NCBI RefSeq assembly: GCF_029227855.1
Contig: NZ_CP074356.1
Origin: Escherichia coli
GTDB taxonomy: Bacteria; Pseudomonadota; Gammaproteobacteria; Enterobacterales; Enterobacteriaceae
Direction: 5' to 3' (one strand)
DNA length: 64,000 nt
Positions 16,130 through 27,669 of the stretch are shown here, one piece after another. The position numbers were made by a program, and so were the translations under genes. Position 1 is the stretch's first letter, and each line of letters begins with the position of its first letter. The notes beneath the pieces are model-generated. The model was not told the origin of the DNA. It saw nothing but the letters and a program-made list of their open reading frames with translations, and searched no databases.

Positions 16130-18976
16130 TCAGAAAGTCACATTCAGCGTGGCCTGACCGTTATAACCTTCAGCGCTGCTGCCGCTGACACTGTGGGCAT
16201 AACCGGCCTGAACGCCCAGGGTGATATTTTCCCGGACACGGGCTTCCAGTCCGGCCTGCAGGTCCAGTGACGTGCCATTCCGGGACGGTGAGAACGTCAT
16301 GTTACTGCCGGCGGCGGCTGTCCCCATGCTCATGTCACCCCGGGAACTGAAGGTGCGGATAACAGAAGGCTGTACCCACCAGTTCACCGGCAGTTCACGC
16401 ACACGGTGTTTTGCACTGTCGCGCAGGGTGTCACGGGATGAGGTGCCTTCACCAAAGCTCATATCGTTGTGGCTGCCCAGACGGAAACCGGCACGCACAT
16501 GTTGTGCACTGCCATGCCCGAACTTCACATAACCGGCGTTATCCTGGCCGTCATCCAGGGAAAGTCCCTGCCAGGTATACTGCAGTTGTGGCTCCAGCAT
16601 CAGGTTGTCAGTGATACTGAAGGGCAGACCGGTTTCCAGTGAGCCCAGCCAGCCCCAGCCGCGGGCGCGGAAGTCGTTATTGTCCGATGACGCTTTCATG
16701 CTGTGGCGGGTTCCCTGTGCCACAATGTCAGCCCACAGGCCGGAGGACGTGTGTGTCAGATTCAGGTATCCGCCCAGGCTGCCGGCATCATCCCGGACCG
16801 TGCCGGCGCGGGAACCGTCATCATCCTTAACATCAACGGAAGAATGGCCTGCGGCACCATGCACCCCTGTCGTCAGAGACATACCGGCAACCTCTGTTCT
16901 GAGCAGGTCACCCTCCAGACGGACGAAGCCATAGCTGCCGCTGCTTTCCGGCGTGGCTCCACGGGCAATACCGCCGTTGTTATCGTGACCGAGATGACCG
17001 CCCTGAATGCTGAGACGGACGCTGTTATTTTCACCGTTTACACCGGTCTGATGGCTGCGGGAGCCTGCCAGAATCCGGTCATAGTCCATTGCCTGTGTCA
17101 GCATGGAGGCATACAGGGGGACTTCAGCACGATAAGCATTTTCACTGCGCAGGTACCAGTCTTCATCGCTGTCACGGTTCAGGGTGTAGTTAAAGGCGCC
17201 GGCCTGAAGCGGGCGACTCAGGGCAAATGCACCTTCTTCTGTGGTGGCGCCATTCTGTGCATCCACAACCCGGATACCCTGTCCGGAGGTTGCCACCCCG
17301 AGGTTACTGTTTCCGACATTTGTAAACGCAAGCCAGGTTTTGCCGGTTGCCTGACCACCATTAATCACCAGCTGGTCAGAGGTATTGCTGCCATCAAGGC
17401 GAACACGCATATTGATGGTGCCACCCTGACCGGTGAGGTTACTGGTGGTCAGTTTATGGAACGTTACCGGGGAGTCGCCTTTTGCAACAGCACGGCTCAG
17501 CGCGGCATCCGGTGTCGTCTGATTATCAAAGCGAATCTCCCCTGCGTTAACAATATCGCCGGTACTGACCACATCGCCATTCAGTACCATGCTGGCACCT
17601 TTACTGAGCTGTGTTCTGCCACTCAGACTTCCCCCGGCAGCCAGCGTCAGTGTTCCACGATGTCCGACAGTGGTGTTGCTGGCCAGTCCTCCGGCATTAA
17701 CCGTAAAGCTGCCGCCATTTTCCAGCAGCAGTCCGCTGGCCTGACCGGATGTGCCATCAATACTGAACTTACCGCTGGCATTGGTCCCCTCAACAGTGGC
17801 ACCACTGTCTGCAATCAGGGCACTACCGGATGTCATGGTGACATCTGTTGCCTTACCACCGGCAGACACTGCCAGGGTTCCGCCGTCATCCACCAGTGTT
17901 TTCCAGGCTGAATGGCCCTCCAGTACATCCAGGCGACCACCGGACTCCAGAACAACACCGTCAGCATTACCGTTTTCCACAGTGAAATTGCCCAGACGGT
18001 TGCTGCCGGTGACGGTTGCCGCCGTACTGGTGACCAGTGCGCCTCCCTGCTTCAGGGTGACATTCGTGGCTGTACCACCGGCGTTCACCTGCAGTTTGCC
18101 TTTCTGGTTAACGGTGGTGAAATCCGCCAGACCACCTTCCTTGACAATCTGCCAGCCGTCACTGTTTACAACCGTGTCAGAGGCTGTGCCTCCGTTGTGC
18201 ACATACTGGTAACCGCCATTCAGTGTGGTATCCAGCGCATGCCCGTGTACCGTCTGGTCGCCGCCGGCATAAACCACAGTGGTATTTGCTGTTCCTTCAG
18301 CAGCCACAATCTGACGACCATTTTCATTGATAGTGGTACGTACGGCATTTCCGCGAACAAACTGCCCGGTATCACCATTTTCTGCATCCGGTCCCCCTTC
18401 CGCGCCGGTATTCACAACCGTGTCGGTTGCCATTGCGCCGGATTTGACGGCCTGCCAGCCCTTCTCATTAATGACGGTACCCGTTGCAATCCCGCCTTCA
18501 TGTACCCACTGCTCACCGCCGTTCAGAGTGGTGTTCACTGCCTGCCCCTGAAGGCTCTGTCCGCCTCCGGCACTGATAACCGTGTCTGAAACGCTTCCTC
18601 CGGCATTCACTCTCTGAAGACCACCACCGGTGACAGTAGTGTTGTTGGCGATACCGCCATTTTGTATCCATTGTCCGCCGGTATTGGCCTCGTTATCCGG
18701 CCCATACTCCAGACCGGTACTGATGGTCATTCCGTTGGCCGTACCGAAGACAATCTGGTTGTCATGATTTGTCAGTGTTCCGCCGCTCACGGTTTCTCCC
18801 GCCTGTACGACCGTGTCAGCAGCCAGTACCGGGACTGACGTGACAGCAGCAAGAGACAGCGCAACCGCCACACCGGTGCGTTTTCCCCGTGAGCGCGCCA
18901 GTTCGGAAGCCACCACCAGGGTGCCCGTAATGTGATTCCATACCAGCCTGTAGCTGGTGTTCAGATGTCGTTTCAT
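16130..18976 (-). CDS. flu: antigen 43 (AIDA-I-type self-associating autotransporter adhesin)
   Basis: 948 aa; N-terminal extended signal peptide [15 protein letters not shown], repetitive beta-helix passenger, C-terminal beta-barrel ending …ATLNVTF. Confidence 0.9.
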
Positions 18977-19194
18977 CAGCTTTTCCTTACAGAGGGTGAA
19001 TAAAAAAGCCGGTACCCACAAATGTGGATACCGGCAGGTACAAAACAGCATGGTCAGATAAAGTGGTTTTTCCCGGACATAAATGCTTCCCCTCTCTCAT
19101 CCGCCAGAGAAGTATCAGTCCGTTGTGTGCAATTCCGTTCTGCATGATGAAGAGATTCAGCTGCCTTTTCGCAGGCCATTAACCACTATAAACG

Positions 19195-19230
19195 ATCGAT
19201 AGCAACGATCGATACCTGTTTTATCGATCG
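19195..19230. promoter_or_regulatory. three clustered GATC sites upstream of agn43 (Dam/OxyR phase-variation switch)
   Basis: GATC at 19195, 19208 and 19227 in the leader region of flu; the arrangement matches the known agn43 switch. Confidence 0.6.
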
Positions 19231-19347
19231 TTTTATTCTATTGATTACAAGGCGGTCACGCAAGAGAAACAGGAGGAGTATGAGGGGTTTGTGTCATGTT
19301 TTCAGTTGGTTAACGTAATGTTATCAGGCATTTCCCTGGCAGACTGT

Positions 19348-20220
19348 TCAGAAGAAAATCCAGTTCCATACAGCGCGGGCAACAGAGACCACCGTGTCAC
19401 GGACGGCACGCAGAACCGTACGGGCAACAGAGGCAACACAGACGCTCTCCGCCGTGTCAAATATCCGGTCCACCGCACCGGTAAACTGTTCACGGGCCTG
19501 AGCGCGGACAGATTCCGTGCGCAGCTCGTCCTGCAGGCGGGTCATCAGGGGACTGGCGGCATGGTCGGGAAGTGCTGTCATTAGCGCACTGACCAGCGTA
19601 TCCAGTTCCCAGCCGGTGCGGGCCGATACGGCAACAACCGGATGTACGGGCCGGAACAGCCGGAATACCGCATCTGTTTTCTCACGAATGTTCTGTGCCT
19701 GTGCGGGAGAAGGCTGAATGCCGGCCATATCCCATTCATGGCAGGGCTCCGTTTTGTCGGCCTGCGTCACCACAAACAGCACCTGCTGATGTCCCCGGTG
19801 CAGGATGTGTCGCCAGAAATACTCATCCACAGACAGGGCACGGTCATCGGCTTTAATCAGCCACAGTACCAGGTCAAGTTCAGGCAGAATGTCACGGTAC
19901 AGGGCTTCATACTCTGCATCCCTGTCCCGGCTCTCGCCCACCCCGGGCAGGTCAGTGATAATCATGCTGTGACCGTGGCCACTCAGACGGAAGCGCCGCA
20001 CTTCCCGGGTGCCGGCGTGAACATCACTGACCGGGGTGACCTCCCCCTGAAACAGTGCATTACAGAGTGAGGATTTACCGGCCCCGCTTTTACCCATAAT
20101 GCCAATCACGGGTTCGTGACTGGTGAGTTTGCGCAGATGTTCCAGGATGTGACGGGAAAGTGAGTAAGGCAGGGAGGGGAGCGGTTTTTCAATTGCCTCA
20201 ATGGCATCAGACGGATTCAT
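19348..20220 (-). CDS. YeeP/YfjP/YkfA-family putative GTPase
   Basis: P-loop GIMGKSGAGKSS and a downstream DLPG motif; start at MNPSDAIEA. Confidence 0.75.
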   Translation of the reverse strand: MNPSDAIEAIEKPLPSLPYSLSRHILEHLRKLTSHEPVIGIMGKSGAGKSSLCNALFQGEVTPVSDVHAGTREVRRFRLSGHGHSMIITDLPGVGESRDRDAEYEALYRDILPELDLVLWLIKADDRALSVDEYFWRHILHRGHQQVLFVVTQADKTEPCHEWDMAGIQPSPAQAQNIREKTDAVFRLFRPVHPVVAVSARTGWELDTLVSALMTALPDHAASPLMTRLQDELRTESVRAQAREQFTGAVDRIFDTAESVCVASVARTVLRAVRDTVVSVARAVWNWIFF

Positions 20221-20304: not shown

Positions 20305-21018
20305 TTATCTGGAATGTCGGTACCTTTTATACTCTTCAACAATCAGGTCATGCAGCATTTCGCCGGTACTGAGTCTTCTGACCCTCGATAATTCTTTGAG
20401 CTGCGCCCTGGTTTCTGCGTCAAGAAAAAACTGTACATTGACTTTATCTTCCTGCATTTTTTTGTACTTGCGCTGCGCCTTGGCCTTATTGAAACTGTTT
20501 CTGAAATTTTTTATATCGTCAGGTGAGGTGAGTGGACAGGTAACCCATATGTCAAATGAAAGGTGAATTGCGTGGTAAATATCAGCAGAACCAGGAAAAC
20601 TGGCCAGTTTTTCCAGTGCAATATTTTTTCCCTTCAAATAATTCCATGTCCATATGCATTCATGTTCGTTCTCCGGGAGGAGGTAACTGAAAGGACTCTT
20701 TGATTTAAATGCCCGCATCCATCTGTCTTTGGTCTGGATTATCCACTCATCCCGCAAATTCTTATCAGAAAGAATATCGAGAACTCTGAGTATTTGTCTG
20801 AACTGTGTCGATGAGTCCGACGGGAAGGCATTCCCTTCTAAATACTCTTCTTTAAGATACAGTTTATTCTTTTGAAGCAAGTCTGCGCTTATTTTTGTCC
20901 TGTTATTCTGGATAAACTGCATCAACAGATACCAGGAAAATAAGCATGCACGTTCACTGCCCGCGATCCAGGATATTTTTTCCAGGGGCACCAGGGAGGC
21001 CAGTGCCTTCAGACGCAT
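20305..21018 (-). CDS. hypothetical protein (237 aa)
   Basis: ORF only. Confidence 0.5.
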   Translation of the reverse strand: MRLKALASLVPLEKISWIAGSERACLFSWYLLMQFIQNNRTKISADLLQKNKLYLKEEYLEGNAFPSDSSTQFRQILRVLDILSDKNLRDEWIIQTKDRWMRAFKSKSPFSYLLPENEHECIWTWNYLKGKNIALEKLASFPGSADIYHAIHLSFDIWVTCPLTSPDDIKNFRNSFNKAKAQRKYKKMQEDKVNVQFFLDAETRAQLKELSRVRRLSTGEMLHDLIVEEYKRYRHSR

Positions 21019-22406
21019 ACCAGAAATGATTTGTTCAAGTTCAAAATCTGAAAGTGTGATGTTCAGATTTTCTCTGTTTTTTTTATGTAAGCGATAAAAC
21101 GTTCCGGGGGATCATAAACATTAAGGGGCAGTACGGAGATATTACGCTCTCCAAGATAATAAGAGTAATACGCATTTGTTCTTTCATTCATAACCTTATC
21201 CGACAAAATTTTCTGAACCATCCTCTTTCTCCGGTTGCTTAAAAATTAAACATAATAAGGTGATAATAACATGATAAAAAGAAGTTTATAATGGTATATT
21301 AAGGTGGTCAATAAAAAGGCAATCTGCGCGCTGTACAGTCATTCTGACAGGAAATGCAGGAGGAAGGGAAGGTAACCGGCTTCGTTATGCTGACAGGAAT
21401 ACCTGTTATCATGGAAGTGCACTCATGTGGCCGACGTAGCTTAAGAGGATGGAAGAGTGGAGACTGCAGACAGGGGGTATTGAAAGGTAAACATGTTTCG
21501 CCCGCCAGCTGCACCGGGGGCCAGCATCACTTTTTTTACGTTGTAACCCGGTATGCATTCCGGCTTTGATGATTACAGTCAGAGGGCAGCAGACTGACGT
21601 TATTTAACCGGACAGAAAAATTATGGACACTGAAATATCGTCTGTTAATACCTCGTTTGTCGGTGTGGTATTCCCTGTATTACCGGCGTCACCGATAAAG
21701 AGAGTTATAAACGCCAGAAAGGTACCTCCTTTATGCCGGGGAACACTTACGGAAAATGAAGTCTGAAAAGGAGCACAATGAAAAGAGGCGTGTCCCGTAA
21801 ATATAGGGGCAAATCCAAGGTGATACCAGAGGGCATTAAACTGTCGCCACGGATAAGAATATACAACATTTCTGATAACAAAACATCATAACGTGTTTCA
21901 GATATGTTCCGGCATCAGTCTGACGGATATTATTTCCCGGTAAAACAAACCGGCTACTGTAACGGTTAACTGTATCTGCATAAATTATTTATGATGAAAG
22001 AACAGTATTACGGATTCAAATATCATCCTGTTTGCATTCAGGCGGACATTCCCGGATGCCGGAAAGAATATCCTGCAGGCTGAGTGAGTCTCTTCCACAG
22101 TGCCGGGATCGCTGTCGCCACGTACATATTGTCACCAGGATGGGTATGTACCGCAGCATGCCATTTCTGGTGAATAACCGCACCTGCACATTCAGTCTGC
22201 TGAGAACCTGGCGTGTATCGGGCTGTAAAGAACATCCCTGTCCGTGGCTCCTCTGGTGGTGTTGCCTGCTCAGCAATGACAGGATGCCCTTAAGACGCCC
22301 GTCATGGCTCAGTATGATGACGACGAACACGCTCTGCAGGTGAGCATGCGGGGCCGGGAGCATCATCATTTCCGTATTTTGTCACACCTTCCGGAAGCAA
22401 CCGGCA

Positions 22407-23024
22407 TCAGTTGCGGCTATCGTCAACCGTTGTGCGGTATGCCAGGAGCACGTACTGATCCATCAGATCCGTCAGTGCTGCGCTCTGCCTCTGACGGTTG
22501 ATGATCCATTCCTCCAGCTCTTTTTCTGATTTCCGTTTCAGGTTCTCTTTCCAGTCTTCAAGGCTGTTTCCGGTCATTAAATCAAGCCAGCAAAGCCAGA
22601 CCAGTTTGAGGCGCAACTCCGTGCCACCAAACTGACGGAAGAGGCTGATCAGTTTATTTGCCAGAGAACGCTGCCTCAGACGTTCACATTCAGACAGGAG
22701 AATGCCTTCCAGCATCGGATGATGAACCAGCAGATGTTCACTGGTGCATAAATTCACAATCAGATCATCATCCAGGGGCGGCGTGGCCCGTTTGTCAGGG
22801 CCATAAATCAGCCGGTGCAGGCTCTGGGGTACGATGGCAATCTCCGGTTTTTCACCATTGAATGACACCCAACCGGGCGTCAGATTATGGAAGTAGTAGA
22901 TATTCGGATGACACACGCCCCAGGATACGGCGTGCCGGGTGAAGCCGGTCAGCCATTTCTGGTAGCTTTCGTGGAGCCATTCGTAGCGGGTCTGATACTG
23001 TTGTTTCATTTTCATATTCCTCAC
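22407..23024 (-). CDS. hypothetical protein (205 aa)
   Basis: ORF only. Confidence 0.5.
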   Translation of the reverse strand: MRNMKMKQQYQTRYEWLHESYQKWLTGFTRHAVSWGVCHPNIYYFHNLTPGWVSFNGEKPEIAIVPQSLHRLIYGPDKRATPPLDDDLIVNLCTSEHLLVHHPMLEGILLSECERLRQRSLANKLISLFRQFGGTELRLKLVWLCWLDLMTGNSLEDWKENLKRKSEKELEEWIINRQRQSAALTDLMDQYVLLAYRTTVDDSRN

Positions 23025-23103
23025 GGGGATATAACAGGCAGCAGAATGCCGCCGGCAGGCCGGGGATTACGTCTGCTGCGGGTGAACGGATAACGGTCAG
23101 AAA

Positions 23104-23310
23104 TTACGGGCGGGGCTGTGCAATACGCGCCTGTAGCCAGGCTTCCACTTCACTTTTCAGCCAGCGGGAGCTGCGGCCCAGCTTGATGGGAGCCGGAAAG
23201 GCCCCATCCCTGATGAGCCTGTAAAACCACTTATCTGTCAGGCCGTTCAGTTGAGTGATAAATGCCATGTCGACCATCTGGTCATCCATCAGTGAAACTG
23301 GGGTAGCCAT
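23104..23310 (-). CDS. alpA: AlpA-family phage transcriptional regulator
   Basis: 68 aa, …MAFITQLNGLTDKWFYRLIRDGAFPAPIKLGRSSRWLKSEVEAWL…. Confidence 0.7.
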   Translation of the reverse strand: MATPVSLMDDQMVDMAFITQLNGLTDKWFYRLIRDGAFPAPIKLGRSSRWLKSEVEAWLQARIAQPRP

Positions 23311-24538
23311 GAGAATGTTCCTCCGGATGTTGTTAAACCAGCCGGTGTGGTCATGAAAACAGCGCGCCACCTTCACCGGCATAACAACCGGGGAGAAACG
23401 TAAAAAATAATCGGGAATGTGACCGCCAGGAGATAAACGGGGAGGTTGCGGTGGCTGAGCCGTACCGGTATACCGGGTGGTTGTTGCGAAAAGATGCTTC
23501 CGCACGCACGCGCGATAAAGAGGGGATAGTTTTCGTGAGGACAGGGAGAGAAGCAGGCGTTCTGATAATTGCAGAGTTGTTTTCGGAGGTGGTTACAGTG
23601 AGTCAGCCCGTTCCTGGCGAGGAGGAGACTGATATCACCGATGGGATAAGGCTGTCTGATTGGTATTATAAATATAAGAAGTCATCAGAGAGTAACGTAA
23701 AGGATTTGCCAGAGTAAGCTAAGAGAGTAAATCTCTCCGGTAACAGAGCGCTGTGAATCGTTCATGTATCAGAGTGCAGATACATGAACGCTGATGCGTA
23801 AAATCAGCAGTGACACGCCAGCTCCCCCTGTGCCCATTCCTGTATAAGACATGAACTGAGCGTATTAATGCTCCTGCCCTGAGACTGAGCGGTGAGTGAG
23901 GGGCTGAGAAATCCCTCTTGACAATGCTCTAAACCAGAAATACTTCCCCGGTTGTTGCGGTGCGTCCGGATCCCCGATAACGGAACACTAAGGCTGTATT
24001 GCGGGACACCAGGTAAGTGGCAGCCCGTAATACGTCAGGAGACGCGGGAAAAGTGAATTCCCACACGCGTTATAAACTTACCCTTGCGGAGCTGGAAGCC
24101 TTTAACTCTGCCGTTGACAACCGGCTGGCAGAACTGACAATGAACAAACTTTACGATCGCGCGCCGGCTTCCGTCTGGAAATATGTCACCTGAATATTGA
24201 AGCAGCGCTACGATGACTCCGGTGTTATCTGCACCGGAGGACCGGGAACATTAAGCGGTATAGCGACAACAAAGAATTCGAAATCAAAAGGGAATGGTGC
24301 CGGAGGCGTGGGCGGTAATAGGCTGATTTTCAGGTATTACCGGCTTACAACGTGTGGTTGATATTGAGGGGCTGTGAGTTTCGCGTATTTGTCAGAAACC
24401 CAGATGAGTTTTCCTGTATGGGACGAAATAAGGCAGCGGCAATACCTGGAAAATTTAATATGGTATGAAGGAGAACCTGTCGGTTACGCTTAATATACAC
24501 GGTACACTGTCAGCTCAGGGGATACATGAACCGTTATC

Positions 24539-24742
24539 TCACCAGCTACACAGTATACACACACTGACGCTGACAGTAGTCAGCAGGACCACAATAATCA
24601 GCGCCAGCAGTATGGTAACGATACGGTCTGTATTCCGGTAGTAGCCGAAGGGGTCGACAGAACCACAATACGGGCAACACACTGTATTATGAGTAATCGC
24701 GTTTCCACAATCCCTGCACTTCTTTTTGCGTATCACCATCAC
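24539..24742 (-). CDS. small zinc-ribbon protein with C-terminal transmembrane helix (67 aa)
   Basis: CRDCG...CPYCG followed by a hydrophobic stretch. Confidence 0.35.
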   Translation of the reverse strand: MMVIRKKKCRDCGNAITHNTVCCPYCGSVDPFGYYRNTDRIVTILLALIIVVLLTTVSVSVCILCSW

Positions 24743-24901
24743 TCCCTCCTCACAGCCTTACCCGTAACCGGTTTTTTACATTAAAAAACGACGCTGAAAA
24801 TTCAACCGTCAGTCCGGAGACGACCGTTCGGGTTATCACAGAGTGCCTGAGACAGTGTCCTGCCGGAGGTCACTTCAGGGACTCTGCGCATTTTTTACGA
24901 C

Positions 24902-25507
24902 GTGGCTATTCCGTATGAACCATACGGAGATTTAACCATGACCTACAAATACAACCCCTTCTGGCAGCAACGTATTCGTGAGACGGTGCGGCACGCACTG
25001 AATGTTCATCCCCGCCTGACGGCATTGCGGGTTGACCTGCGTCTCCCGGATGTACCGGCAGCAACGGACGCAGCTGTGATATCCCGCTTCATCAATGCCC
25101 TGAAAGCCCGAATCGACGCTTACCAGAAACGTAAGCATCGGAAAGGTAAACGCGTGCATCCCACCACCCTGCATTACGTCTGGGCCCGGGAGTTTGGGGA
25201 GTTCAAAGGTAAAAAACACTATCACCTGATGCTGCTGGTCAACCGGGATACCTGGTGTCGTGCCGGTGATTACCGCGCTCCGGAGTCTCTGGCCGGGATG
25301 ATTAAACAGGCGTGGTGCAGTGCCCTGGGAGTGGATGTCGGGTGCCATGCCACGCTGGTGCATTTTCCGGCCTGGCCGGCGGTGTGGCTGGCGCGTAATG
25401 ATGACACCGGCTTTCAGCAAGTGCTGGAACGTGCTGACTATCTGGCGAAAGAGCATACCAAAGCTCACTGCACCGGTGAGCGCAATTTTGGCTGTAGCCG
25501 GAGTTGA
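24902..25507 (+). CDS. YagK/YfjJ-family (inovirus Gp2-like) protein
   Basis: Family resemblance recalled from memory; start may be the internal ATG (MTYKYNPFWQQ). Confidence 0.5.
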   Translation: MAIPYEPYGDLTMTYKYNPFWQQRIRETVRHALNVHPRLTALRVDLRLPDVPAATDAAVISRFINALKARIDAYQKRKHRKGKRVHPTTLHYVWAREFGEFKGKKHYHLMLLVNRDTWCRAGDYRAPESLAGMIKQAWCSALGVDVGCHATLVHFPAWPAVWLARNDDTGFQQVLERADYLAKEHTKAHCTGERNFGCSRS

Positions 25508-26590: not shown

Positions 26591-27321
26591 TGGTTGCCTC
26601 CGGAGCAGTTTGCGGTGATGCCTTTCCCGGGAATGGATTGCCAGTGCGGGGACTGTGGAGCTTAATTCCGGTGTTGGTGGCCTTTCCGTTGATTTTATGC
26701 CAACAGCCCCCTGTGACTGACAGGCTGCCTCGTCATTCCATTCGTATCTCCAGTAACAGGGGGTTGTATTGTATTTTATTGTGCCGGTTCAGGTGTGCGT
26801 TTCCCGGCGCGTCTGCACCGGCTTAACCAAATTCAACAGGGATAAAATAGTGGTAAGCGTACAGCCTGAACCGTCTGGTCAGAATCTGACGAATTAGACA
26901 AAGTGGTGTCCACCAAATAAGTAGTGGGAACCAAAGTGTCAGATATGCAGAAAAATGTGACTCCCGGCAGGTGAAAAGGCTGCCCTAATTATCCTCCCGA
27001 ATTTAAACAGCAGCTCGTTGCTGCCTCCTGTGAACCCGGGATATCCATCTCAAAACTTGCTCTTGAAAATGGCATTAACGCCAATCTGTTGTTCAAATGG
27101 CGACAACAATGGCGCGAGGGAAAGCTGCTATTACCTTCTTCAGAGAGCCCCCAGCTACTTCCTGTGACTCCCGATGCAGCTGCCGAACAGCCAGAATCGC
27201 TCGCAGAGGACCCGGAAACCCTCAGTATCAGCTGTGAGGTAACGTTCCGGCACGGGACGCTCCGCTTCAATGGCAATGTCAGCGAAAAGCTCCTGACTCT
27301 GCTGATACAGGAACTGAAGCG

Positions 27322-27669
27322 ATGATCCCGTTACCTTCCGGGACCAAAATTTGGCTGGTTGCCGGTATCACCGATATGAGAAATGGCTTCAACGGCCTGG
27401 CTGCGAAAGTACAGACGGCGCTGAAAGACGATCCCATGTCCGGCCATGTTTTCATTTTCCGGGGCCGCAGCGGCAGTCAGGTTAAACTGCTGTGGTCCAC
27501 CGGTGACGGACTGTGCCTCCTGACCAAACGGCTGGAGCGTGGGCGCTTCGCCTGGCCGTCAGCCCGTGATGGCAAAGTGTTCCTTACGCAGGCGCAGCTG
27601 GCGATGCTGCTGGAAGGTATCGACTGGCGACAGCCCAAGCGGCTGCTGACCTCCCTGACCATGCTGTAA
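27322..27669 (+). CDS. tnpB: IS66-family accessory protein TnpB
   Basis: 115 aa, MIPLPSGTKIWLVAGITDMRNGFNGLAAKVQ…. Confidence 0.8.
   Translation: MIPLPSGTKIWLVAGITDMRNGFNGLAAKVQTALKDDPMSGHVFIFRGRSGSQVKLLWSTGDGLCLLTKRLERGRFAWPSARDGKVFLTQAQLAMLLEGIDWRQPKRLLTSLTML

Follow-up and report, generated by a model that had tools for sequence, protein, structure and literature searches.

Two ORF-poor stretches of a leuX-associated Escherichia coli island probably consist of ordinary DNA of a decaying mosaic

What is contained in the two stretches 21020-22400 and 23315-24535 of an E. coli genomic island? A sequence-only reading of this DNA had found nothing but short overlapping ORFs on both strands, which was confirmed, and had proposed decayed genes, regulatory RNAs or binding sites associated with an AlpA-like regulator. 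The window, the whole stretch of 64,000 nucleotides that was analysed, represents a leuX-associated island and is near-identical to strain E24377A; the compared copies and variants of the island are designated L001-L012. The core module of the island comprises a YagK/YfjJ ('Gp2') gene, an Hha paralogue, alpA and a 200-aa gene, and it is joined to a variable cargo of a 305-aa gene, a YeeP-type GTPase and Ag43. This gene order has long been known from the Shigella SRL island. Both stretches are probably ordinary DNA of a mosaic, decaying island, largely non-functional or merely regulatory, and harbor no hidden element.

Frame lengths were compared with dinucleotide-preserving shuffles. The longest stop-to-stop frame of the first stretch was 121 codons (shuffle mean 103; 18% of shuffles reached 121) and that of the second stretch was 110 codons (shuffle mean 117; 53% reached 110). 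An open frame of at least 150 codons was missing from seven stretches of 700 bp or more in the window, two of them being the stretches under study, and the description of an 'otherwise dense island' was overstated in view of the five further ORF-poor stretches. The first stretch and its surroundings were resolved into the following features.

20305-21221, minus strand: 305-aa hypothetical gene, RefSeq CDS WP_000250236.1 in E24377A, frameshifted in the window
21222-21382, minus strand: upstream region of the 305-aa gene, with a promoter-like site and a GGAG-type ribosome-binding sequence before the ATG
21527-21712, plus strand: fossil comprising the alpA leader and the initial ~95 nt of the alpA coding sequence, detected by nhmmer, unannotated
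21713-22083, no strand: AT-rich spacer confined to this island lineage, unassigned, without homologue beyond near-identical copies
22084-22406, no strand: non-coding flank directly 3' of the 200-aa gene, common to sister island variants and decaying
22407-23009, minus strand: 200-aa hypothetical gene of the core module, between the two stretches, RefSeq CDS

The claim that the first stretch lacks convincing ORFs held for 21222-22303 and failed for 21020-21221, which had been counted as ORF-free and is the 5' part of the 305-aa gene. This CDS is annotated in E24377A and in about 1290 other genomes and belongs to no family in Pfam, NCBIfam or PHROG. The frameshift was located at a T8 run at 21077-21084 (A8 on the coding strand), which is T9 in L001, L002 and L003; the T8 allele was present in 80 of 1370 genomes. 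Slippage in the homopolymer would explain the frameshift in the window. The true unannotated gap of the first stretch, hereafter gap 1, spans 21222-22303 (1082 bp), and its longest frame of 106 codons was not above chance (shuffle mean 102, sd 24; 36% of shuffles reached it).

Immediately upstream of the 305-aa gene, a promoter scan showed a promoter-like TTGACC-17-TAAACT at 21311-21283. Six further promoter-like matches were obtained, and the counts of promoter-like and terminator-like pattern matches were within shuffle expectation; the promoter positions are putative. The segment 21222-21382 accompanies the 305-aa gene elsewhere, as in the BL21-type strain C43, where it lies beside a truncated integrase at tRNA-Phe (98% identity over 160 bp). 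A promoter or control role of this segment is suggested by its sequence.

The segment 21527-21712 was matched by an nhmmer profile of alpA plus its leader, built from 9 variants, with 19.8 bits (E = 6.2e-6 over the whole window; the next non-self match had 3.9 bits). This score was reached by 0 of 1000 shuffles (maximum 7.6), and the match was recovered again with a sub-profile. The segment is about 68% identical to the real alpA copy (119/174 in the pairwise comparison) and frameshifted, and both have in common TTTTTTACGTT..CCGGT..CCGG and an aligned ATG (21623). At the protein level, the best six-frame segment of the AlpA profile was 21649-21756 (+), a weak match (E = 0.0056) and the sole segment below the inclusion threshold. 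The intact gene of the window matches Phage_AlpA, as a member of the AlpA/Vis family (CP4-57 AlpA, P4 Vis and P. aeruginosa AlpA), whereas the fossil was not detected by this Pfam model and retains no intact ORF or helix-turn-helix domain, its frame shifting between 21623-21766 and 21649-21756. The 3' half of alpA was not detectable at the fossil, and nhmmer sub-profiles found no remnant of this 3' half, of the 200-aa gene or of its flank in 21713-22083; the sub-profiles were used in place of a long module profile, which gave no matches with a padded target. Judged by its homology to alpA at the DNA level, 21527-21712 is an alpA pseudogene fragment. An old rearrangement, as we infer, would have left it behind as the relic of a second alpA and its leader in opposite orientation.

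For the adjacent spacer 21713-22083, the only homologues found were copies of at least 96% identity, carried by about 1290 E. coli genomes, and there was no phage match, no protein-family remnant and no homology to the module. Full-length matches in a plasmid collection were confined to near-identical E. coli records, two of which resemble chromosomes. In other genomes the spacer is a site of IS insertions and deletion breakpoints; IS1, IS2, IS3, IS21, IS66 and IS110 as well as deletion breakpoints occur in and around both stretches. Repeat searches found no iterons and no tandem arrays. These 371 bp count against reading the gap as debris, as the part for which that reading does not account. 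Since the ~860 bp of lineage-specific DNA are at least 96% identical in all ~1290 carriers, conservation analysis is powerless over them, and a young functional element may reside there.

To find protein remnants in gap 1, its six-frame segments of 38 aa or more were compared exhaustively by phmmer with 1.84 billion representatives, and this search recovered its positive control. All 41 matches were short ORF calls on the same DNA, 62-100% identical (37 of 41 at least 78%). The two matches of lowest identity were checked as leads to diverged copies of the left part of gap 1 and were rejected, being a contig end with an IS fragment and an indel-ridden assembly. The translated search for gene remnants, as had been suggested, thus yielded only ORF calls on the same DNA, with the exception of the alpA fossil, which was seen only with a dedicated profile. 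Decayed genes were indeed present in three places, namely the frameshifted 305-aa gene, the alpA fossil and an N-terminally truncated Hha paralogue, and the phmmer search detected no other protein remnant in gap 1.

Diverged copies were available for the right part of gap 1. The 200-aa gene shows a substitution pattern by codon position typical of a coding gene, and a search of genome contigs with its protein found only two loci, in Yersinia similis and Serratia sp. (62-65% identical), where alpA, a 198-aa gene and a Gp2-like gene are contiguous. Neither the flank 22084-22406 nor the rest of gap 1 has a homologue at these loci, which therefore gave no comparative power for gap 1. Among the island variants, the identity of the flank was 89% in L007/L008 and 66% in L006/L009/L010, and no flank was found in L012, compared with 95%, 94%, 79.5% and 73% at the four-fold degenerate sites of the adjacent gene. 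The flank diverges faster than these synonymous sites and carries a 104-bp deletion in L008.

Could gap 1 encode functional RNA or small proteins? A functional non-coding RNA, be it an sRNA or the long 3' UTR of an operon of alpA and the 200-aa gene, would fit the retention of 22084-22406 beside the 200-aa gene in several island variants and the local hairpin 22143-22162, which has the best-conserved flanks. However, this flank diverges beyond synonymous sites, with indels in addition to the deletion, is absent in L012, Yersinia and Serratia, folds no better than shuffles (z-scores +0.23 and -0.60) and shows no compensatory changes. No Rfam match was obtained in 20900-25000 even at E <= 5, the gathering-threshold matches of the window all lying elsewhere, and no 120-nt window of gap 1 (21222-22406) was among the 15 most stable of 196 windows. 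The regulatory RNAs proposed earlier found no support here, and an RNA function of gap 1 is highly improbable. Unannotated small protein genes, such as a 37-aa ORF at 21778-21891 (+) or a 65-aa ORF at 22038-22235 (-), are likewise very unlikely. The basic 37-aa ORF has a strong Shine-Dalgarno-like AAGGAG 4 nt ahead of its ATG at 21778, and an in-frame 15-bp indel in this region distinguishes the majority allele; for the 65-aa ORF, part of the genomes carry a RefSeq annotation. Yet the ORF lengths of gap 1 are those of shuffled sequence, and its ORFs have no homologues beyond the same DNA and no Pfam or PHROGs family, the seemingly diverged copies being the contig end and the indel-ridden assembly mentioned above. 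The 65-aa, 103-aa and 117-aa ORFs are broken by stops or frame breaks in the sister islands L006, L007 and L008, with indels that are not multiples of three; this test of frame conservation rests on diverged copies, of which 21383-22083 has none.

The second stretch, with the core genes and leaders that border it, is composed of the following features.

23104-23310, minus strand: AlpA-family helix-turn-helix regulator of 68 aa (Pfam Phage_AlpA, E = 1e-7; PHROG 'excisionase and transcriptional regulator')
23352-23408, minus strand: conserved core of the alpA upstream leader (57 nt), containing TTTTTTACG and a CCGG..CCGG hairpin
23451-23717, plus strand: 88-aa hypothetical ORF, RefSeq annotation
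23723-23808, no strand: cluster of three hairpins, including a perfect 12-bp palindrome (23759-23770 / 23779-23790)
24017-24193, plus strand: truncated Hha/YmoA-family gene of 58 aa (Pfam HHA)
24539-24739, minus strand: 66-aa zinc-ribbon (CxxC..CxxC) protein with a C-terminal hydrophobic helix, RefSeq CDS, weak zinc-ribbon matches
24839-24929, plus strand: leader of the YagK/YfjJ ('inovirus Gp2') gene with two hairpins, outside the coordinates of the second stretch

Here too no frame exceeded chance length, so that part of the claim of no convincing ORFs stood, but three short RefSeq CDSs are present, at 23451-23717 (+), 24017-24193 (+) and 24539-24739 (-). The ORF-poor region extends beyond 24535 to the start of the Gp2-family gene at 24938. 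The 88-aa ORF at 23451-23717 has stops and 43-55 gapped positions in L007, L011 and L012 and no family in Pfam, NCBIfam or PHROGs; from its sequence it is probably not a gene. The 58-aa Hha fragment matched Pfam HHA with E = 1.5e-17 (64 bits vs a cut-off of 25) over profile positions 14-57 of 57 and fell below the NCBIfam Hha cut-off (66 vs 90 bits). Homology to the 70-aa paralogue, which other islands keep intact, is confined to 24050-24190, and the C-terminal 46 residues align to residues 26-71 of the 72 residues of Hha (PDB 1jw2). Compared with the Hha/YmoA family and its island-borne paralogues, the fragment matches the C-terminal part without the N-terminal ~25 residues of the 70-aa form of sister islands, and it is not a full-length protein of ~70 aa with the N-terminal helix. 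Across the variants, the paralogue is intact with 70 aa in L007 and L012, has 49 aa in L008 and L011 and is a pseudogene in L009. The truncated copy in the window has probably lost its function. The 66-aa zinc-ribbon gene is intact in L006, L009 and L011, internally deleted in L007 and L012 and frameshifted in L002. The whole alpA-Gp2 interval shows a mosaic identity pattern among the variants, with large indels.

The core of the alpA leader at 23352-23408 is 93-100% identical in all variants. The cleanest comparison is with L012, where its identity was 93% vs 74% at four-fold sites (p = 0.002). An N-terminally extended AlpA (133-aa ORF, 23104-23505) was ruled out by one-base indels between the leader core and the ATG in L008, L011 and L012. 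The leader of the Gp2 gene includes a predicted terminator-like, G+C-rich hairpin (24839-24851 / 24873-24886) followed 4 nt later by T6 (24891-24896), and a second hairpin (24909-24917 / 24921-24929) that pairs the Shine-Dalgarno GGAG (24926-24929). Its fold (24830-24945) had a z-score of -4.4, reached by 0 of 200 shuffles, and 7 variants retain the leader; a 5-nt insertion among them lies in the loop, and 0 compensatory pairs were seen. Because the hairpin cluster 23723-23808, the Gp2 leader structure, the alpA leader core and the enrichment of TTTTTTACG all exceed chance locally, parts of the second stretch are likely functional control DNA and not debris.

How far such control might reach was weighed in three forms. 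The stretches could partly be cis control sites of one circuit acting through the TTTTTTACG leaders of alpA and the Gp2 gene. The AlpA-like protein would regulate these leaders, for instance as an antiterminator in the manner of its Pseudomonas counterpart, or H-NS/Hha would silence the AT-rich DNA. In P. aeruginosa, AlpA loads at promoters that precede intrinsic terminators and works as a processive antiterminator (PMC7969949). In favor of the circuit, TTTTTTACG occurs 5 times vs 0.67 expected, with four of the five in this module, the Gp2 leader fold is stable and conserved, the core of the alpA leader has changed less in L012 than synonymous sites have, and in Yersinia similis a terminator-like hairpin followed by TTTTTTAC likewise lies upstream of alpA. 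However, compensatory base changes are absent, common descent accounts for the TTTTTTACG copies of the fossil and of the alpA leader, and the circuit would cover only about 300 bp, mostly beyond the two stretches. In E. coli, CP4-57 AlpA is known to activate integrase expression and excision and is not known as an antiterminator. The Pseudomonas AlpA-binding element GGGACG-N5-GGTA (PMC7969949) belongs to a distant homologue. Binding sites for the AlpA-like regulator, as proposed from the sequence, may lie in the stretches; the circuit as a whole is rather unlikely. Quite improbable is its extension, in which the TTTTTTACG leaders of alpA, the Gp2 gene and the fossil would be cis elements of a shared switch, AlpA-like or zinc-ribbon proteins would turn on the core of this very common island family by antitermination, and the fossil would be a retained decoy or a second entry site. 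The hairpins and palindrome at 23723-23808 could instead serve the YagK/YfjJ ('inovirus Gp2'-like) protein as an origin or nick site, and the core would then be a replicative module. A perfect 12-bp palindrome has an estimated expectation of about 0.005 per 4 kb, the fold is stable (23720-23839; z = -4.6 to -5.1 for the cluster), and Pfam REP_ORF2-G2P matches the Gp2-family gene weakly, below threshold. However, L006 carries uncompensated mutations in the left arm of the palindrome, and L007, L011 and L012 have another sequence here. We know of no replication function of YagK/YfjJ proteins, and a literature search likewise found none; an origin at this site is extremely improbable.

Under the preferred reading of both stretches as ordinary DNA of a decaying mosaic, the first would be the junction of core and cargo, made up of the beginning of the 305-aa gene with its upstream region, the alpA fossil and a spacer that would evolve at or above the neutral rate and receive repeated IS insertions and deletions. 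The second would be the divergent control region of the core, with the alpA leader, the Hha remnant, the gene of the small zinc-ribbon membrane protein, the spurious 88-aa call and mosaic spacers presumably swapped by recombination between island copies.

Known islands offer close parallels. The Shigella flexneri SRL pathogenicity island was reportedly described by Luck et al. in 2001. Its orf39-orf47 were re-annotated (PMC6980539, Table 2), and by the published annotation the order is as in the window: YfjJ/'inovirus Gp2', Hha/YmoA-like, Vis/AlpA-like, 'no similarity' ORFs, YeeP-type GTPase and Ag43 (PMC6980539). Whereas the SRL annotation places four hypothetical ORFs (orf42-45) between AlpA and YeeP, only the 200-aa and 305-aa ORFs behave as genes in the window. 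The 200-aa, the 58-aa and other proteins of the window are recorded from Shigella too. RgdR and P4-like regulators (PMC3378721) were considered and set aside as belonging to a different element. The cryptic prophages CP4-44, CP4-57 and CP4-6 of E. coli K-12 share with the window YeeP/YfjP/YkfA GTPases, Ag43/flu with IsrC, antirestriction, CbtA/CbeA-type toxin-antitoxin, AlpA and YfjJ/YagK, and are in the same state of mosaic decay. To our knowledge, the AlpA / 200-aa / 305-aa arrangement and gap 1 are absent from the K-12 elements.

For annotation, the 1.1-kb unannotated gap carried by about a quarter of complete E. coli genomes would be junction debris with an unannotated alpA fossil, the homopolymer A8/A9 recurrently breaks the 305-aa gene, and the 58-aa 'Hha/YmoA family' CDS is a truncated remnant. 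The annotated 88-aa and two 65-aa 'hypothetical proteins' are probably spurious calls. These results matter little beyond annotation hygiene, and the leaders of alpA and the Gp2-family gene would be the only pieces of regulatory interest.

The 5.5 kb around the two ORF-poor stretches (21020-22400, stretch 1; 23315-24535, stretch 2) were 99.9-100% identical to the chromosome of E. coli E24377A and many other strains. At least 80% of this locus was present in 1285 of 5426 complete E. coli genomes, and parts of it occurred in 4333 genomes, at a median of three places per genome. A tRNA-Leu(CAA) lies at 58230-58314. Neighbouring genes were placed by mapping the E24377A RefSeq annotation onto the window with a one-base offset corrected.

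Features around the two stretches (RefSeq annotation of E24377A unless stated)
16130-18976, minus strand, Ag43 adhesin
18995-19231, minus strand, IsrC/IS102 RNA between the GTPase and Ag43 genes (Rfam match)
19348-20220, minus strand, YeeP-type GTPase
20305-21221, minus strand, 305-aa hypothetical gene, followed by the gap
22407-23009, minus strand, 200-aa hypothetical gene
23104-23310, minus strand, AlpA-family regulator
23451-23717, plus strand, 88-aa hypothetical ORF
24017-24193, plus strand, Hha/YmoA family protein
24539-24739, minus strand, 66-aa hypothetical protein
24938-25507, plus strand, YagK/YfjJ ('inovirus Gp2') family protein, followed by two zinc-ribbon proteins

The gene order from YfjJ to Ag43 is identical to that of the Shigella flexneri SRL island, which reads YfjJ, Hha-like, Vis/AlpA, 'no similarity' ORFs, YeeP and Ag43 (PMC6980539, Table 2).

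The longest open frames, 121 codons in stretch 1 and 110 in stretch 2, were no longer than those of dinucleotide-preserving shuffles, and both stretches therefore look non-coding by ORF length. The sequence-only reading had reported only short overlapping ORFs here, which holds except that 21020-21221 belongs to a gene and stretch 2 carries three annotated short CDSs. Seven such ORF-poor stretches were found in the window. The other five, each of at least 700 bp without an open frame of at least 150 codons, are 10799-11663, 26733-27586, 30731-32603, 40168-41309 and 52356-53487; the largest spans 1.9 kb with 38% G+C.

At 21077-21084 the window has T8 (A8 on the coding strand) where E24377A, F070 and C43 have T9. 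The frameshift cuts the 305-aa CDS into ORFs of 237 and 52 aa, so 21020-21221 counts as gene and the unannotated gap proper is 21222-22303 (gap 1). The T8 allele was present in 80 of 1370 genomes, S88 and EC958 among them, and could reflect recurrent slippage, phase variation or sequencing error. The first 160 bp of gap 1 also accompany the 305-aa gene in another setting, in a BL21-type strain where a truncated integrase at tRNA-Phe is the neighbour, and contain a promoter-like site by pattern scan; we infer that they are the upstream region of this gene. The 90%-identity protein cluster holding the 305-aa protein also includes many 220-aa YtfE iron-sulfur repair proteins, which resembles a clustering artefact that a chimeric representative may have produced.

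Further into gap 1, 21527-21712 is the fossil of a second alpA in the opposite orientation. In the repeat analysis, 21532-21563 formed an inverted repeat with 23376-23407 in the alpA leader. Nine variants of alpA and its leader were then combined into a nucleotide profile, which matched 21527-21712 (plus strand) at 19.8 bits, with E = 6.2e-6 for a search of the whole window; the next non-self match scored 3.9 bits, and no shuffle among 1000 exceeded 7.6 bits. The alignment to alpA extends from TTTTTTACG across an aligned ATG to some 95 nt of the coding part, with 68% identity. The sole significant six-frame match of the AlpA protein profile was the frame-shifted 21649-21756 (E = 0.0056), where IPCITGVTDKESYKRQKGTSF aligned with itqltGltdkWfyklikdgaf. 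Pfam gave no match to the fossil, and profile searches found no remainder of the module downstream of it.

Gene remnants in stretch 1 were sought exhaustively with HMMER in every six-frame segment of 38 aa or more. Besides the control, which was recovered, this returned 41 short ORF calls on the same DNA (62-100% identity, at least 78% in 37 of them) and no real family. The longer matches were read-through chimeras that included Ag43 repeats, a frameshifted 200-aa gene or a BioD C-terminus. Of the matches followed up as possible diverged copies, the two with the lowest identity traced to an indel-ridden assembly and to a contig end where an IS fragment lies. A word-indexed protein search with a long chimeric query can miss identical short proteins, and an earlier six-frame negative of this kind was discarded because its control was missed. 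Similarly, nhmmer gives neither output nor warning when the model window exceeds the target length; negatives from either kind of search need a positive control. The protein-level check found no family by HMMER, and the alpA fossil emerged from repeat analysis and a dedicated profile. The proposal of decayed genes was correct in three places, namely the frameshifted 305-aa gene, the alpA fossil and a truncated Hha paralogue; the HMMER search gave no other protein remnant in gap 1.

In sister islands the right-hand flank, 22084-22406, was always placed immediately 3' of the 200-aa gene, with differing cargo beyond it. Constraint on it was not detectable. Its identity was 89% in the sister variants L007 and L008, 66% in the L006 type and nil in L012 (GPEC1222); four-fold degenerate sites of the adjacent 200-aa gene were 95%, 94%, 79.5% and 73% identical, respectively. 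Variants carried a 104-bp deletion and indels not divisible by three, each ORF was disrupted in at least one variant, and neither strand folded better than shuffles. The flank was not found in the Yersinia and Serratia relatives of the module. An antisense 65-aa 'hypothetical protein' (22304-22501, plus strand), which overlaps the real 200-aa gene at its 3' end, had a stop or frameshift in two variants. The RefSeq 'hypothetical protein' CDSs annotated in various genomes at 22304-22501 (plus), 22038-22235 (minus) and 23451-23717 (plus) are disrupted where copies have diverged and probably represent spurious calls. The lineage-specific DNA, including the 371 bp of unassigned sequence at 21713-22083, is young, and its copies were all at least 96% identical; comparative tests therefore had no power on it. 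Long unannotated stretches directly 3' of the 200-aa gene also occur in L012 (90-1528, 1.4 kb) and L006 (4571-5307, 0.7 kb). Their sequences are unrelated, and few genes seem to occur at the core-cargo junction in general.

In stretch 2, the Hha-family CDS at 24017-24193 (Pfam HHA, E = 1.5e-17) aligned with Hha residues 26-71 only and is a remnant truncated at the 5' side; elsewhere the paralogue is an intact 70-aa protein in sister islands and a 49-aa form or annotated pseudogene in others. The 66-aa protein, with CxxC..CxxC and a hydrophobic tail, is probably encoded by a real small gene because this is intact in several diverged variants; in others it is damaged. Three variants have stops and 43-55 gapped positions in the 88-aa ORF, which probably does not represent a gene. 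Between alpA and Gp2, blocks of 96-99% identity adjoin blocks of 50-70%, with indels up to 239 nt, a mosaic pattern that points to recombination between copies of the island.

Upstream of alpA, a 57-nt core (23352-23408) was almost invariant among variants; in L012 its identity was 93%, versus 74% for four-fold sites (p = 0.002). A recombinant block confounds the comparison with the L006 type. At 23723-23808, three adjacent hairpins with a perfect 12-bp palindrome, CGTTCATGTATC-N8-GATACATGAACG, were far more stable than shuffles; the L006 copy is degraded without compensation and other variants carry replaced sequence. Just outside the range of the sequence-only reading, the Gp2 leader (24839-24929) is predicted to form a long terminator-like hairpin followed by T6, then a second hairpin pairing the Shine-Dalgarno GGAG, and looks like an attenuator. 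The fold (z = -4.4) is kept in seven variants, with a 5-nt insertion placed in the loop. Five copies of TTTTTTACG were found in the window versus 0.67 expected, at 21532, 24891 and 25593 and, on the minus strand, at 23407 and 31635. The four in the alpA/Gp2 module lie upstream of alpA, in the alpA fossil, upstream of Gp2 and between the Gp2 and zinc-ribbon genes. The Yersinia similis locus (L004, 3571-3599) has a similar hairpin followed by TTTTTTAC, upstream of alpA.

The suggestion of regulatory RNAs was unsupported: Rfam matched no family in 20900-25000 even at E <= 5, no 120-nt window inside gap 1 was among the 15 most stable of 196, and no predicted pair showed compensatory changes. Elsewhere in the window, Rfam matched an ALIL frameshift pseudoknot (IS3-type; 53685-53801, plus strand) and a group II intron domain near tRNA-Leu (56328-56414, plus strand). 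AlpA-associated binding sites are credible for the short conserved leaders only, as candidates. Both stretches hold nothing new in kind; they consist of debris at the junction, gene fragments, control regions and short genes from an island family that is well known, decaying and recombining.
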